A stretch of DNA of 64,000 bases from Gammaproteobacteria bacterium (GCA_965222615.1 CBDCUI010000009.1:214454-278453); one strand, 5' to 3'; positions 335 through 8,116 are shown, counted from the stretch's first letter. Numbers and translations are program-made. The notes: generated from the letters alone by a model not told the origin.

Positions 335-2572
335 ATGCCTAGAGATCCCAAATATGACATCTTGTTTGAGCCTATTGATATTGGTCCCAAAACACTAAGG
401 AACCGTTTTTATCAGGTACCACATTGCAATGGAGCAGGGTCTGATAAACCTGGTTTTCAGGCAGCAAATCGCTCTATGAAAGCTGAAGGAGGTTGGGCCG
501 GTATTAACACCGAATACTGTTCGATACACCCCGAGTCAGATGATGTTCACCGAGTATCTGCGCGATTATGGGATGAAGGAGATGTACGTAATCTCAGCGC
601 AATGACGGAACATATTCATAAATTTGGTGCTTTGGCAGGGGTTGAGATGTGGTATGGCTCATCACATGCACCTTGTATGGAAACACGTTGTACACCAAGG
701 GGTCCAAGTCAATTTGCATCAGAATTTGAGTTACAGACTTACTGTCATGAAATGGACCAAGAAGAAATTGACGAAGTGCAAGAGTTCTATGTGGAATCTG
801 GTAAACGTGCACGTGATGCCGGTTTTGACATTGTGTACGTATATGGAGCGCACTCCTATTTGCCTCTACAATTTCTTTCAAAATACTACAACAAACGCAG
901 TGATAAATATGGAGGTTCGTTAGAAAATCGCGCAAGATTTTGGATTGAGACTTTAGAAAAAGTTAAACGCGCAGTAGGGGACGATTGTGCCATTGCAACT
1001 CGCTTTGCAGTTGATACCTTATATGGTGAAGACGGTATTGAAGTCGAAAAAGATGGTTTAGCGTTTGTAAAGCTAGCAGATCCACTGGTCGATGTTTGGG
1101 ACGTCAATGTTGGCGATATTGCAGAATGGGGTGAAGATGCAGGGCCTTCACGTTTTTACCGACAAGGTCACCAACTTTCTTGGCAACAGTTTATCAAGCA
1201 TGAATCCAAGAAGCCGGTGTTAGGGGTAGGACGATTTACCGATGCAGAGAAAATGGCTGAAGTGATTCGCTCCGGTCAGTTGGATATTATTGGTGCTGCT
1301 AGGCCATCGATTTCCGATCCATTTTTACCGCAAAAAATTGATGAAGGACGTATAGACGATATTCGTGTTTGCATTGGCTGTAATGTTTGTATTTCTCGGT
1401 GGGAAATAGGAGGGCCTCCATTTATATGTACGCAAAATGCTACAGCTGGAGAAGAATATCGCCGCGGCTGGCATCCTGAGAAGTTCCCTAAAGCGGGTTC
1501 TGACGATTCCATATTAGTAGTGGGCGCTGGCGCAGCAGGCGCTGAATGCGCGCGTGTACTCATGGAGCGTGGCTACGTTACACATATCGTGGATCAGGCA
1601 GAAAAAATAGGCGGCTATGTAAATGATGTTGCAACTTTGCCTGGTTTAGGTGAATGGGGTTACCACCGCGATTATCGTGAGACACAACTCGAGAAGCTAA
1701 TTAAGAAAAATAAGGATTGCCAAATTGCGCTTGGAGCCAAGCCCTTAAGCGTAGATGATTGTTTGGAATATGGCGCGGAGAAAATCGTTATTGCAACAGG
1801 CGCCGCCTGGAATACCGATGGTACCAATGCGTTTACTCATGATCCGATTCCAGGCATCGATGCGAGCTTGCCGAGCCATGTAACGCCTGAACAGATTTTT
1901 GCTGGGAATAAGGAGATTGGTAAGAAAGTCATCATTCTAAACTACGACCCTTATTATATGGCCCCGAGCCTGGCACAAAAATTAGCTGAAGCCGGACATG
2001 ATGTAACCATTGCATCTGCTGCAGGATTAGGCCATTACATGGAATTCACTCTGGAGGCGCCTAATATGCATCGTCGCTTACATGAATTACATATAGAGGT
2101 ATTAGGTGATGTTGCAGCCAGTCGCGCTGAGGCCAATCGTATAGAACTGTATAACGTATGGGGTGATGGTTCTGAGCGGACATATCGTGGACCTGGAAAA
2201 TTGCCACGCACTGAGAACAAAACCTATCAGTGGTATGAGTTTGATAGCTTGGTGTTAGTTACAGGCCGCCATTCCATTGACGAACTACACCGCGGTTTAA
2301 GGGCACGTCGAGATGAATGGGACTCTAATGGTATTAAAGATGTTTATGTCATTGGTGATGCCTGGGCACCTAAATTAATTGCTGATGCCACCTTTGAAGG
2401 TCATCGTTTAGCAAGAGAAATTGAGGAGCCTCGGGCGCAATATCCCAAACCTTATCGCCGTGAAGTGGCTGTGTGGGGCACACCGCATATGCCTGGTGGT
2501 ACTTTCGAAATTAAATACGAAGGCCTAAAAGAAGCCCAAATGCAGCGTTCTCGAGTTGAAGAATATGCTTGA
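335..2572 (+). CDS. Trimethylamine/dimethylamine/histamine dehydrogenase family flavoprotein (OYE-like FMN domain + 4Fe-4S + ADP-binding domain)
   Basis: 745 aa. N-terminal old-yellow-enzyme-like region; Cys motif [10 protein letters not shown]...FIC (CxxCxxC-x11-C) typical of the TMADH 4Fe-4S site; downstream [12 protein letters not shown] dinucleotide-binding motif; strong RBS aggagg 8 bp upstream of ATG. Confidence 0.8.
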
Positions 2573-2728
2573 TACAGCGTTCTCAAGTTGAAGTATTTTG
2601 CTTGAAACAGCGTCCTTGAGTTAAAAATTCACTTGAGGGCGCCATTTCCTTTTCAACACTGCATTTTACAGCTATGCGGTTGAGTCCTGAGTAATCATCC
2701 AAATACAAGCTGAAAAGAAGAACGGCTA

Positions 2729-6359: not shown

Positions 6360-7154
6360 ATGAAGATACTTGTACCGATTAAACAGGTAGCAACACTCGA
6401 TGAAGACTTTGAAGTTCGCGAGGACGGTAAAGATGCCGACCCAGATTATCTCGATTACGAGCTCAATGAGTGGGACGATTATTCTTATGAAGCCGCATTA
6501 CAGATAATGGAAGCACATGATGCTGTGGAAGTTATTCCTGTCACAGTTGGGTCAGAAGAAGCAGAAGATGGTTTGCGCAAGTGTTTGGCAAAGGGGGGCG
6601 AACGTGGCATTCGTATATGGGACGATGCTTTAGAAAATTCCAATCCACTTGTAATAAGCAAGGTACTTGCAAAAGTTGCTGAAAAGGAAAATGCCGACAT
6701 GGTATTTGTAGGTACTTTGTCATCAGATCATGCCTTTGCAAGTACTGGAGTCGGTATTGCTGCTGAGCTGGACTGGCCACATGTCGCAGTGGTTTCAAGT
6801 TTGGAATACAAACCGGGTGATCCATCAGCCAAAGTTCGACGCGAGTTAGAAGGCGGTATCGAAGAAGAACTCAAAGTGCAATGTCCTGCAGTTTTAACCA
6901 TTCAGCTTGGTATTAATGAACCTCGCTATTCTTCACTTCGTGGTATTAAACAGGCTAAAGCAAAGCCTATTGAAGAACTGTCACATAGCGACTTGGGTTT
7001 AAGTGATGACGAAGTAGGTGAAGCGGGGTCAGCCTTTCGTGTACGACGTATGTATATCCCTGAAAAGGGGCAAGCAGAACTGATTGAGGGAACTGCAGCT
7101 GAACAAGCAGTGCGACTTACTGAAATCATTAAAGAACTACAAGGAGCAGCTTAA
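6360..7154 (+). CDS. etfB: Electron transfer flavoprotein beta subunit
   Basis: 264 aa. N-terminus MKILVPIKQVATLDEDFEV is typical EtfB; immediately followed by etfA with a 1-bp overlap. Confidence 0.9.
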   Translation: MKILVPIKQVATLDEDFEVREDGKDADPDYLDYELNEWDDYSYEAALQIMEAHDAVEVIPVTVGSEEAEDGLRKCLAKGGERGIRIWDDALENSNPLVISKVLAKVAEKENADMVFVGTLSSDHAFASTGVGIAAELDWPHVAVVSSLEYKPGDPSAKVRRELEGGIEEELKVQCPAVLTIQLGINEPRYSSLRGIKQAKAKPIEELSHSDLGLSDDEVGEAGSAFRVRRMYIPEKGQAELIEGTAAEQAVRLTEIIKELQGAA

Positions 7155-8116
7155 TGAATGGAATACTAGTTATTGCTGAACACCGACAAGGCGAGTTAAG
7201 TGCAGCCACACTTGAGACGATAGGGGCTGCCACTTTGCTCAAATCACAACAACAGCAGCAACTAACTGTTGCTATATTAAGTAAAAATACCGATGCGTTT
7301 GTACAACAAGTAAGTGTTACTGGAGTGGATGAGGTAATTACTGTTGAAACGCCGGTTGATAATTTTCAATCAGATATATATGAAACGGCTGTTTTAGGAC
7401 TCGCAAGTGAACATAAGCCGAGCGTGATCATGATGCCGCATAGCGTTGATGCTTGGGGGTATGTTCCAGCGGTGGCGGTTAAGGGTGATTATGGCTTAGC
7501 CACCGATGTATTTGACGTCAAATATGAAAACGATGAACTTATCGCTACTCGTGCCGCCTATGCAGAAAAAATGCATATGGAAGTTGATTTTCCTGGTAAG
7601 GAAACCATCGTACTTACTATTCGTGGCAATGTATTCAAACCAGCTGAAGGGACTACCAGTCCAGAAGCATCCATATTTAATTTAGCTGATGTGCAAATGC
7701 GTACTGAACATTTGCAATTCATTGAACCGGAATCTAGTGGAGATGTAGATATCACTCAAGCCGAATATATGTTGTCTATTGGGCGAGGAATTAGTGAAGA
7801 AGATAATGTAGAACAATTTCAAGAGCTGGCAGACCTTATGGGCTTTACACTAGGATGCTCGAGACCTATAGCTGATAACGGTTGGTTACCTAAATCTCGA
7901 CAAGTAGGCCAATCTGGCAAAACTGTGACAAGTTGCAATGTCTATATCGCCATGGGGATTTCTGGTTCGGTACAACATATGGCAGGAATGAAGCATGTAC
8001 CTAATATCATCGCAGTAAATACCGATGCCGAAGCCTCTATATTTAGTATTGCGAGATATGGCATCGTTGCTGATATCTTTGATATCGCTGATGAGCTACA
8101 AAATCACTTTACGTGA
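7154..8116 (+). CDS. etfA: Electron transfer flavoprotein alpha subunit
   Basis: 320 aa. C-terminal FAD-binding signature ...ISGSVQHMAGMKHVPNIIAVNTDAEASIFSIARYGIVADIFDI matches the EtfA consensus. Confidence 0.9.
   Translation: MNGILVIAEHRQGELSAATLETIGAATLLKSQQQQQLTVAILSKNTDAFVQQVSVTGVDEVITVETPVDNFQSDIYETAVLGLASEHKPSVIMMPHSVDAWGYVPAVAVKGDYGLATDVFDVKYENDELIATRAAYAEKMHMEVDFPGKETIVLTIRGNVFKPAEGTTSPEASIFNLADVQMRTEHLQFIEPESSGDVDITQAEYMLSIGRGISEEDNVEQFQELADLMGFTLGCSRPIADNGWLPKSRQVGQSGKTVTSCNVYIAMGISGSVQHMAGMKHVPNIIAVNTDAEASIFSIARYGIVADIFDIADELQNHFT

Follow-up and report, generated by a model that had tools for sequence, protein, structure and literature searches.

A trimethylamine dehydrogenase gene cluster encoding a predicted EtfD-like oxidase of its electron-transferring flavoprotein and an LRV-repeat protein

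Positions 335 to 8116 of a 64,000-nucleotide stretch of gammaproteobacterial DNA (GCA_965222615.1, CBDCUI010000009.1:214454-278453; hereafter the window) encode what we interpret, with a probability of about 80%, as a trimethylamine dehydrogenase respiratory operon, tmd-etfD-lrv-etfB-etfA, in which an EtfD-like membrane protein would reoxidize the electron-transferring flavoprotein (ETF) and a protein with LRV repeats would act as an accessory. An earlier model-generated annotation, hereafter the original prediction, had proposed an electron path from an amine dehydrogenase through ETF to this membrane protein. Five intact, co-oriented open reading frames (ORFs) on the plus strand fill the region, and its limits match those originally predicted exactly. 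They correspond to tmd (335-2572; 745 aa), encoding a trimethylamine dehydrogenase (TMADH) with 6-S-cysteinyl-FMN, a [4Fe-4S] cluster and an ADP-binding domain; an etfD/emo-like gene (2729-4852; 707 aa) for a predicted membrane ETF:quinone oxidoreductase of the EtfD/EMO (HdrDE-like) family; lrv (4895-6304; 469 aa), for a predicted cytoplasmic LRV/HEAT-repeat solenoid and conserved accessory; and etfB (6360-7154; 264 aa) and etfA (7154-8116; 320 aa), for the beta subunit and the alpha subunit (with its FAD domain) of an ETF of the W3A1 type. The E-values of the cluster proteins against solved structures, from 0 to 1e-100, exclude chance similarity.

The five genes and their products

In a search of solved structures, the product of the first ORF matched TMADH from Methylophilus methylotrophus W3A1 (PDB 1DJN/2TMD) at 1272.7 bits, aligning without gaps over 727 residues with 71.5% identity and extending 16 residues beyond the C-terminus of the W3A1 enzyme. 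Histamine dehydrogenase followed at 494-508 bits, 2,4-dienoyl-CoA reductase at 122 bits and old yellow enzyme (OYE)-type reductases and NADH oxidases at no more than 110 bits. The proposed TMADH-family flavoprotein clustered with etfBA is thus upheld, and it does not group with the dienoyl-CoA reductases or NADH oxidases that the original prediction had named as the outcome that would contradict it. Pfam and NCBIfam scans identified Oxidored_FMN, an OYE-like second alpha/beta domain and a Pyr_redox_2/NAD-binding domain. Inspection of individual positions (W3A1 numbering) revealed that Cys30, Tyr60, Ser74, Trp105, Tyr169, His172, Trp264, Asp267 and Trp355 are all kept in the window protein, completing the aromatic substrate bowl formed by Tyr60, Trp264 and Trp355. 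Cys30, the site of the 6-S-cysteinyl-FMN link (QVPHCNGAG in the window), is present here and in 76 of 76 homologs, and the [4Fe-4S] ligands Cys345, Cys348, Cys351 and Cys364 (C346, C349, C352 and C365 in the window) are all invariant. The cysteines of the originally proposed CxxCxxC-x11-C motif are therefore in place, but the third and fourth are separated by 12 residues rather than 11. The residues involved in ETF docking and electron exit are also present, with Tyr442 kept in 70 of 70 orthologs and Val344 in 67 of 70.

Scanning species-representative genomes with a TMADH alignment yielded 77 loci. Tyr60, Ser74 and Trp105 occur in the window and in all 70 orthologs with at least 69% identity, whereas six paralogs at 62-65% identity, mostly from Hyphomicrobium, carry Gln60 and Thr74, with Phe105 in five of the six. 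We take Gln, Thr and Phe at positions 60, 74 and 105 to be the dimethylamine dehydrogenase (DMADH) pattern, in line with the Hyphomicrobium X sequence and with mutagenesis in the Scrutton laboratory; the mutagenesis that gives the TMADH-versus-DMADH triad its meaning was reported by Basran and colleagues in 1997. Because the window protein carries the TMADH-type triad and the 62-65% paralogs carry the alternative one, trimethylamine (TMA) is the predicted substrate, with activity on ETF predicted as well, and we assign the first ORF on sequence grounds as a true trimethylamine dehydrogenase (EC 1.5.8.2). The substrate had initially been left open among tri- and dimethylamine, histamine or another amine; the triad and the 71.5% identity speak for trimethylamine and against dimethylamine and histamine. 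At the loci carrying DMADH-pattern paralogs (L064, L069, L073, L074, L077 and L078), no etfD is found downstream of the paralog. At L078, an etfD-lrv-etfBA block immediately precedes the DMADH-pattern gene, and the two amine dehydrogenases encoded there may share one ETF/EtfD set.

The two ETF subunits are equally close to the proteins that accompany TMADH in W3A1. The etfB product matched chain C of PDB 1O94 at 349.7 bits (59% identity; next-best ETF, 127 bits) and the etfA product matched chain D at 393.5 bits (58% identity; next-best ETF, 137 bits). The beta-subunit recognition loop PRYxSLRG (PRYSSLRG in the window), which includes Leu194, is conserved and almost invariant over the 56 loci compared, and the Ser-Arg-Pro motif of the alpha subunit, with the anionic semiquinone stabilizer Arg237, is likewise conserved in the window. 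Identity and docking residues point to a dedicated, non-bifurcating ETF of the W3A1 type, the known partner of TMADH, as had been anticipated when ETF was named as the natural acceptor.

The second ORF has one strong structural relative, PDB 9OJN (248 bits, E 9.9e-73), which is the structure of M. smegmatis EtfD (MsEtfD) (PMC13083937). The two proteins align along their full length, bearing out the suggested likeness to mycobacterial EtfD, and the window protein has a fused NarI-like heme domain. Domain scans placed a 4Fe-4S dicluster domain and a CCG domain C-terminal to a hydrophobic N-terminus, and the product contains five hydrophobic segments. Within these, all 63 orthologs from tmd clusters share His90, His253 and His271, which fit the pattern of the heme-ligating triads of S. 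aciditrophicus EMO (SaEMO; H87/H233/H251) and MsEtfD (H78/H223/H241) (bioRxiv 10.64898/2026.08.18.745454), with one histidine in transmembrane segment 2 and two, 18 residues apart, in transmembrane segment 5. The equivalence of H253 and H271 with the EMO triad relies on this 18-residue spacing, the HMMER local alignment being offset in that helix; the HMMER pairing of MsEtfD His241 with Phe260 was discarded in favor of the spacing common to SaEMO and MsEMO.

The soluble part of the protein follows the same pattern. Two cubane motifs of the form CxxCxxCxxxCP (C319/322/325/329 and C384/387/390/394) are present, and all eight cysteines are invariant among the 63 orthologs. The second CCG domain retains the ligands C593, C628, C629 and C668 together with His543, kept in 62 of 63 orthologs, and His543 aligns with His583, the MsEtfD ligand of the non-cubane cluster. 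The first CCG domain, in contrast, lacks its four ligands, MsEtfD C503, C538, C581 and C584 being replaced by D469, N504, D541 and S544. The polytopic protein with two ferredoxin motifs and CCG domains that had been described is therefore recovered in its hydrophobic segments and in both motifs, but keeps cluster cysteines in the second CCG domain only. In mycobacterial EtfD the distal cluster is a linear [3Fe-4S] cluster, and the same loss of ligands occurs in B. subtilis FadF and P. aeruginosa DgcB, in which ETF has been proposed to reduce the non-cubane cluster directly (PMC13083937). Because FadF and DgcB have lost the same ligands, loss of the distal cluster is compatible with EtfD/EMO membership, and the shared architecture and ligands identify the product as a predicted membrane iron-sulfur/heme protein of the EtfD/EMO family.

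The third ORF, between the EtfD-like gene and etfBA, encodes the HEAT/LRV-repeat protein expected there (Pfam LRV, PF01816; 68.9 bits, cutoff 21.6), which no NCBIfam model matched. Around 35 full-length homologs were found at 33-45% identity, nearly all of them unnamed or annotated as "hypothetical". An AlphaFold2 model built from the homolog alignment (mean pLDDT confidence score 95.1) consists of 34 alternating short helices forming one continuous solenoid, and a fold search of this model against the PDB returned generic HEAT/ARM scaffolds alone, the best being those of the protein phosphatase 2A A-subunit at a TM-score of about 0.3, with no functional lead. No Fe-S or other cofactor motif is present, and a single cysteine (C202) is near-invariant across homologs. 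The 24-residue LRV repeat is shared with the Azotobacter vinelandii LRV protein (PDB 1LRV; E 2.7e-4), but the window protein lacks the N-terminal [4Fe-4S] domain of the latter and is about twice as long. In seven of seven genomic contexts anchored on LRV homologs, lrv is located between etfD and etfB of a tmd cluster, pointing to a cofactor-less solenoid that would be specific to tmd clusters.

Several features of the sequence suggest that the five genes form an operon. The start codon of etfA overlaps the stop codon of etfB, the remaining spacers measure 156, 42 and 55 nt, and etfD/lrv and lrv/etfB overlap in loci L002 and L004. Downstream of etfA, between the convergent etfA and porin genes, a GC-rich stem-loop (8148-8193; 14-nt inverted repeat with 93% complementarity, fold energy -34.7 kcal/mol, z-score -2.5) is likely a bidirectional terminator closing the operon. 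A second, 12-bp hairpin with a U-rich tail lies on the plus strand in the 156-nt tmd-etfD spacer (2610-2654), directly after the tmd stop codon, with the stem GCGUCCUUGAGU/ACUUGAGGGCGC followed by CAUUUCCUUUUC. The spacer as a whole has a folding z-score of just -1.4, and this hairpin might terminate or attenuate transcription in part, so that tmd would be expressed more strongly than the genes downstream. Both hairpins were found by RNA folding, and one of them also by inverted-repeat search; a consensus terminator scan called neither. A scan for sigma-70-like promoters returned fewer sites than in shuffled sequences and none usable upstream of tmd, and no tRNA or Rfam features were found in the window.

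Distribution of the arrangement and its relatives

The co-occurrence of these genes was assessed by running the window proteins with tblastn against the 77 TMADH-anchored loci, with counts taken from the 50 ortholog loci that extend at least 6.5 kb downstream of tmd. On these loci, etfD is encoded directly downstream of tmd in 49 of 50 cases and etfB follows downstream of tmd in 48 of 50, whereas lrv lies between etfD and etfB in 28 and is missing in 21, where etfD is followed directly by etfB. The succession of etfD and etfB(A), seen in 48 of the 50 tmd loci, is the genetic linkage expected of an EtfD/EMO protein, and it spans alpha-, beta- and gammaproteobacteria, with carriers including Methylophilaceae, Methylophaga, Paraburkholderia, Cupriavidus, Hyphomicrobium, Xanthobacter, Methyloceanibacter, Paracoccus and Azoarcus. 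On the EtfD tree, the loci without lrv form one large clade (Steroidobacteraceae and related metagenome-assembled genomes, MAGs) and two isolated cases, indicating that lrv is dispensable in some lineages. RefSeq labels within the cluster are generic, reading 'FAD-dependent oxidoreductase', '(Fe-S)-binding protein' and 'hypothetical protein', followed by ETF beta and alpha. The arrangement is thus a normal, widely conserved TMADH operon and not a peculiarity of the source genome, the window being one ordinary instance of many.

One of these loci bears directly on the textbook system. In Methylophilus sp. QUAN (L070, 10001-17650), TMADH, ETF beta and ETF alpha are 99.9%, 98.5% and 96.5% identical to the crystallized W3A1 proteins, and the gene order is the same, tmd-etfD-lrv-etfB-etfA. 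Because these near-identical proteins are encoded in this order, the W3A1 system very probably sits in the same five-gene cluster, with two undescribed neighbors; the W3A1 literature found in our searches makes no mention of the etfD-like and lrv genes. The window encodes the same enzyme and carrier as W3A1 (PDB 2TMD, 1DJN and 1O94-1O97), with all catalytic, cofactor and docking residues kept, but comes from a different organism, with about 40% G+C, and its nearest EtfD relatives are found in gammaproteobacterial MAGs.

In a Methylotenera MAG of the Methylophilaceae (L066, 12238-12684), the gene between tmd and etfD encodes a 148-residue single-domain globin (PF00042; 23.8 bits, barely over cutoff). 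Spacers of 0.5-0.9 kb like that of this locus occur at L011, L025, L042, L056, L071, L075 and L076, and the window has no globin gene at this place.

Comparison with characterized systems places the products of the module in the TMADH, W3A1-type ETF and EtfD/EMO families. Like EtfD/EMO of M. smegmatis and M. tuberculosis (PDB 9OJN; PMC13083937, PMC8593149) and S. aciditrophicus EMO (bioRxiv 10.64898/2026.08.18.745454), the window protein combines a five-helix NarI-like domain and histidine triad with two cubane clusters, a proximal non-cubane cluster with a histidine ligand and linkage to etfBA. It differs from MsEtfD in lacking the distal linear [3Fe-4S] cluster (D1) and the long disordered C-terminal tail, and from the EtfD/EMO systems in that the upstream donor is an amine dehydrogenase instead of acyl-CoA dehydrogenases and in that its hosts are Proteobacteria, for which ubiquinone and not (methyl)menaquinone is the expected quinone. 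In function, the nearest parallel is the dgcAB-etfBA (fixAB) system of Pseudomonas, Vibrio and Ralstonia (PMC12093977; L084), which follows the same logic and order, with a TMADH-family Fe-S flavoprotein, an EtfD homolog without D1 and an ETF, and which, as would the window module, demethylates a methylated amine with release of formaldehyde. The module is nevertheless not a member of this system. The N-terminal domain of DgcB, DUF3483 (PMC12093977), has no match in the window protein at E ≤0.001; DgcB-type proteins from betaine clusters align with its soluble domain alone (residues ~227-702), at about 31% identity; and it is not a PA5399 ortholog encoded beside dgcA and betaine genes. On these grounds, a reading of the second ORF as DgcB was rejected. 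The dgc operon, moreover, has no LRV gene, and its substrate is dimethylglycine. Within the plasmid collection, the closest full-length EtfD relatives outside tmd clusters are haloarchaeal EMO proteins, such as that on Halalkalicoccus jeotgali plasmid 2 (L085), which adjoin etfBA (etfB-etfA-EMO) and show 39-41% identity over 93% of the length; these clusters differ from that of the window in having neither TMADH nor LRV genes and lie in an archaeal fatty-acid context, with an enoyl-CoA hydratase gene nearby.

The predicted electron path and its alternatives

Taken with what is established for its relatives, the cluster would operate as follows. TMADH would convert TMA and water into dimethylamine and formaldehyde at its covalently bound FMN, and the electrons would leave singly through the [4Fe-4S] cluster and then Tyr442/Val344 to the FAD of ETF, docked on TMADH by its beta-subunit recognition loop. 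These steps are established biochemistry for closely homologous, well-studied proteins and can be expected here because the window sequence keeps every residue involved. The resulting ETF semiquinone would be reoxidized by the EtfD/EMO-type membrane protein, with electrons moving from FAD to the non-cubane [4Fe-4S] cluster of the second CCG domain, through the two cubane [4Fe-4S] clusters to heme b in the NarI-like domain, and on to the quinone pool, the quinone probably being ubiquinone. We infer this leg from homology to EtfD/EMO, from the near-universal gene linkage and from the EMO-EtfAB complex, where ETF contacts EMO through its EtfB subunit. The LRV solenoid would act outside the redox chain, as a scaffold or maturation factor for one of the partners.

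Several points weigh against this path. The oxidized/semiquinone couple of W3A1 ETF, according to work attributed to Byron and colleagues (1989) and Talfournier and colleagues (2001), reportedly lies at about +150 to +200 mV. The potential of ubiquinone lies below this couple, and with so positive an ETF couple a simple downhill transfer from ETF to ubiquinone is not obviously favorable. The linkage has exceptions, with neither etfD nor etfBA beside tmd at L060 and no adjacent etfBA at L006. The function of the LRV protein is a guess: since it has no cofactor motif and is absent from about 40% of clusters (21 of 49 otherwise identical ones), it is most likely a non-redox accessory, acting as a scaffold or an assembly/maturation factor for a partner. 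When TMADH, EtfD, EtfB and EtfA from loci with and without LRV were compared, nine fixed substitutions were found in total, with no group-specific indels or convergent substitutions; one candidate, Gly195Ser in the ETF recognition loop, was not repeated in two independent LRV-less loci and was set aside as phylogenetic noise. In open-access text we found no description of the tmd-etfD-lrv arrangement or of the etfD-like and lrv genes of tmd clusters. The EtfD/EMO papers treat fatty-acid oxidation and mention DgcB, but not TMADH (PMC13083937; bioRxiv 10.64898/2026.08.18.745454). An EMO-type enzyme as the missing ETF oxidase of the TMADH system appears to be unpublished, yet a direct extension of known biology. 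Finally, the original prediction set the membrane protein in place of a canonical ETF:ubiquinone oxidoreductase (ETF-QO), and such an enzyme might be encoded elsewhere in the source genome; among the ORFs scanned in the 64-kb window, none has the FAD/[4Fe-4S] monotopic ETF_QO domain (PF05187).

The energetic difficulty and the role of the LRV protein are both addressed by a tentative and rather doubtful elaboration, in which tmd-linked EtfD would use membrane-potential-assisted transfer (a reverse redox loop) via a distal heme to a ubiquinone site on the periplasmic side, and/or the LRV protein would be a dedicated scaffold or maturation factor. The LRV protein might hold the soluble TMADH and ETF at EtfD, or it might assist the covalent attachment of flavin to TMADH, a modification that remains partial when TMADH is produced on its own in E. 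coli. Membrane-potential-assisted transfer via the distal heme has been proposed for S. aciditrophicus EMO, and all 63 orthologs keep the predicted distal ligand H253; MsEtfD, however, keeps this histidine without binding a distal heme (bioRxiv 10.64898/2026.08.18.745454), so that H253 permits but does not prove a distal heme in the window protein.

It is improbable, in our assessment, that ETF is reoxidized by a canonical ETF-QO encoded elsewhere, with the EtfD-like protein being redundant or serving another donor or acceptor. The reach of the domain scan leaves room for such an enzyme, and Pseudomonas, which has DgcB, also has an ETF-QO. Without a dedicated role in the pathway, however, one would hardly expect etfD to sit between tmd and etfBA in 49 of 50 loci, and none of the window ORFs scanned has the domain.

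We consider it very unlikely that the EtfD-like protein is instead a CCG enzyme of another kind, such as a heterodisulfide reductase or the subunit of a lactate, glycolate or glycerol-3-phosphate oxidase (LutA/B, GlcF or GlpC). It has CCG and dicluster domains in common with these families and weak NCBIfam matches to TfrB (139 bits), LdhH (86), GlpC (58), GlcF (29.5), LutB (29) and HdrB/C (26-45). All such scores are far under the family cutoffs (278-800 bits), as in LutB (445), GlcF (333) and GlpC (278), with HdrB/C measured against 160-345, and the LutA/B grouping named at the outset as contrary evidence is thus not observed. The fused NarI-like heme domain and the full-length alignment with EtfD also argue against it, no LutB/C, GlcD/E or GlpA/B partner genes lie nearby, and the first CCG cluster, which forms half of the Hdr active site, has no ligands.

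There is only a slim chance that the dehydrogenase acts on another amine, such as dimethylamine, histamine or dimethylglycine. DMADH, histamine dehydrogenase and DgcA belong to the same family, and histamine dehydrogenase scores 494-508 bits, but these roughly 500 bits stand against 1272 bits and 71.5% identity to TMADH, and the window carries the TMADH-type Y60/S74/W105 where the 62-65% paralogs of the same scan carry Q/T/F. That the LRV protein is itself an electron carrier, like the [4Fe-4S]-containing Azotobacter protein to which it weakly matches, can be virtually dismissed in spite of the position of its gene between two redox-protein genes, given its single near-invariant cysteine (C202), its lack of a cluster motif, the restriction of the 1LRV match to the repeats (residues 195-364) and the absence of the gene from otherwise identical clusters.

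Genomic surroundings and implications

The genes that follow the cluster probably extend it into a wider, recurrent TMA island, comprising a TorF-type porin, a c-di-GMP protein, a NarL-type two-component system, a GcvT-like protein and ribBA, which would serve in uptake and regulation, capture formaldehyde on tetrahydrofolate and supply flavin. Convergent with etfA, a minus-strand gene (8290-9096) encodes a TorF-family (Gcw_chp) outer-membrane porin (NCBIfam TIGR02001; 145.7 bits, cutoff 47), followed on the same strand by a PAS-PAS-GGDEF-EAL signaling protein (9291-11453; Pfam matches). In loci L002, L004, L083 and L086, which belong to distant genomes, a TorF-family porin gene likewise adjoins etfA and a PAS-GGDEF gene is found at the same place. 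Next, also on the minus strand, are genes for a NarL-type response regulator (11475-12131; 284 bits to the NarL model, cutoff 250) and a HisKA_3 histidine kinase (12144-13406; NarQ/NarX-like kinase matches). Homologs of both, at 51-59% identity for the regulator and 38-47% for the kinase, are encoded beside tmd clusters in many loci, and this pair likely regulates the island.

On the plus strand, a GcvT-family aminomethyltransferase-like protein (13969-15075; GCV_T, 230.9 bits) does not reach the cutoffs for GcvT itself and is similar to the C-terminal domain of trimethylamine N-oxide (TMAO) demethylase. In 43 loci, a homolog is encoded no more than 10 kb from tmd. The protein probably captures formaldehyde on tetrahydrofolate. 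The riboflavin synthesis gene ribBA (16182-17423, plus strand; NF006803, 586 bits, cutoff 569) follows the GcvT-like gene, as it does in L001, and RibBA-like genes are found near tmd in about 11 loci; in this loose association, a role in supplying flavin to the module is possible. Genes for a class-I glutamine amidotransferase and an FMN reductase also lie within 13969-18274. Directly after these flavin genes, 19155-20992 encodes a Fur-family regulator and a cytochrome P450 (285 bits), the latter seemingly unexpected in a low-G+C, apparently gammaproteobacterial context.

Further downstream, a giant surface or adhesin-type protein seems to be encoded by a 2840-residue ORF (30167-38689), in which seven DUF11 repeats are joined by DUF7507/CARDB-like domains and an OmpA domain. 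This ORF contains a 414-nt tandem repeat (31704-33300; 3.9 copies, 96% matches) and a local G+C peak. A patch of mobile elements (39335-48253) comprises three IS110-family transposase genes (39335-40378, 41155-42189 and 44532-45566, the last two with equal Pfam scores), an IS30-like integrase gene (42427-43587) and a phage-type integrase (47603-48253). Adjoining it are a gene pair for an AAA ATPase and an S8 subtilase (48375-51694) and a four-gene minus-strand block (52199-57434) in which one protein has a Pfam match (AAA_22); the segment from 48375 to 57434 may be a defense or transposition module.

TMADH and its ETF are a classic model of interprotein electron transfer, and the literature searched does not name the protein that passes electrons from W3A1-type ETF to the respiratory chain. 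The presence of an EtfD/EMO gene between tmd and etfBA offers a specific candidate for this last step and would broaden the newly solved EtfD/EMO family beyond fatty-acid oxidation in menaquinone organisms to include the oxidation of methylated amines by Proteobacteria. The turnover of trimethylamine is important in the marine cycling of nitrogen and carbon and for TMA/TMAO in the gut. Better annotation of the genes in this cluster would improve pathway calls in genomes and metagenomes.

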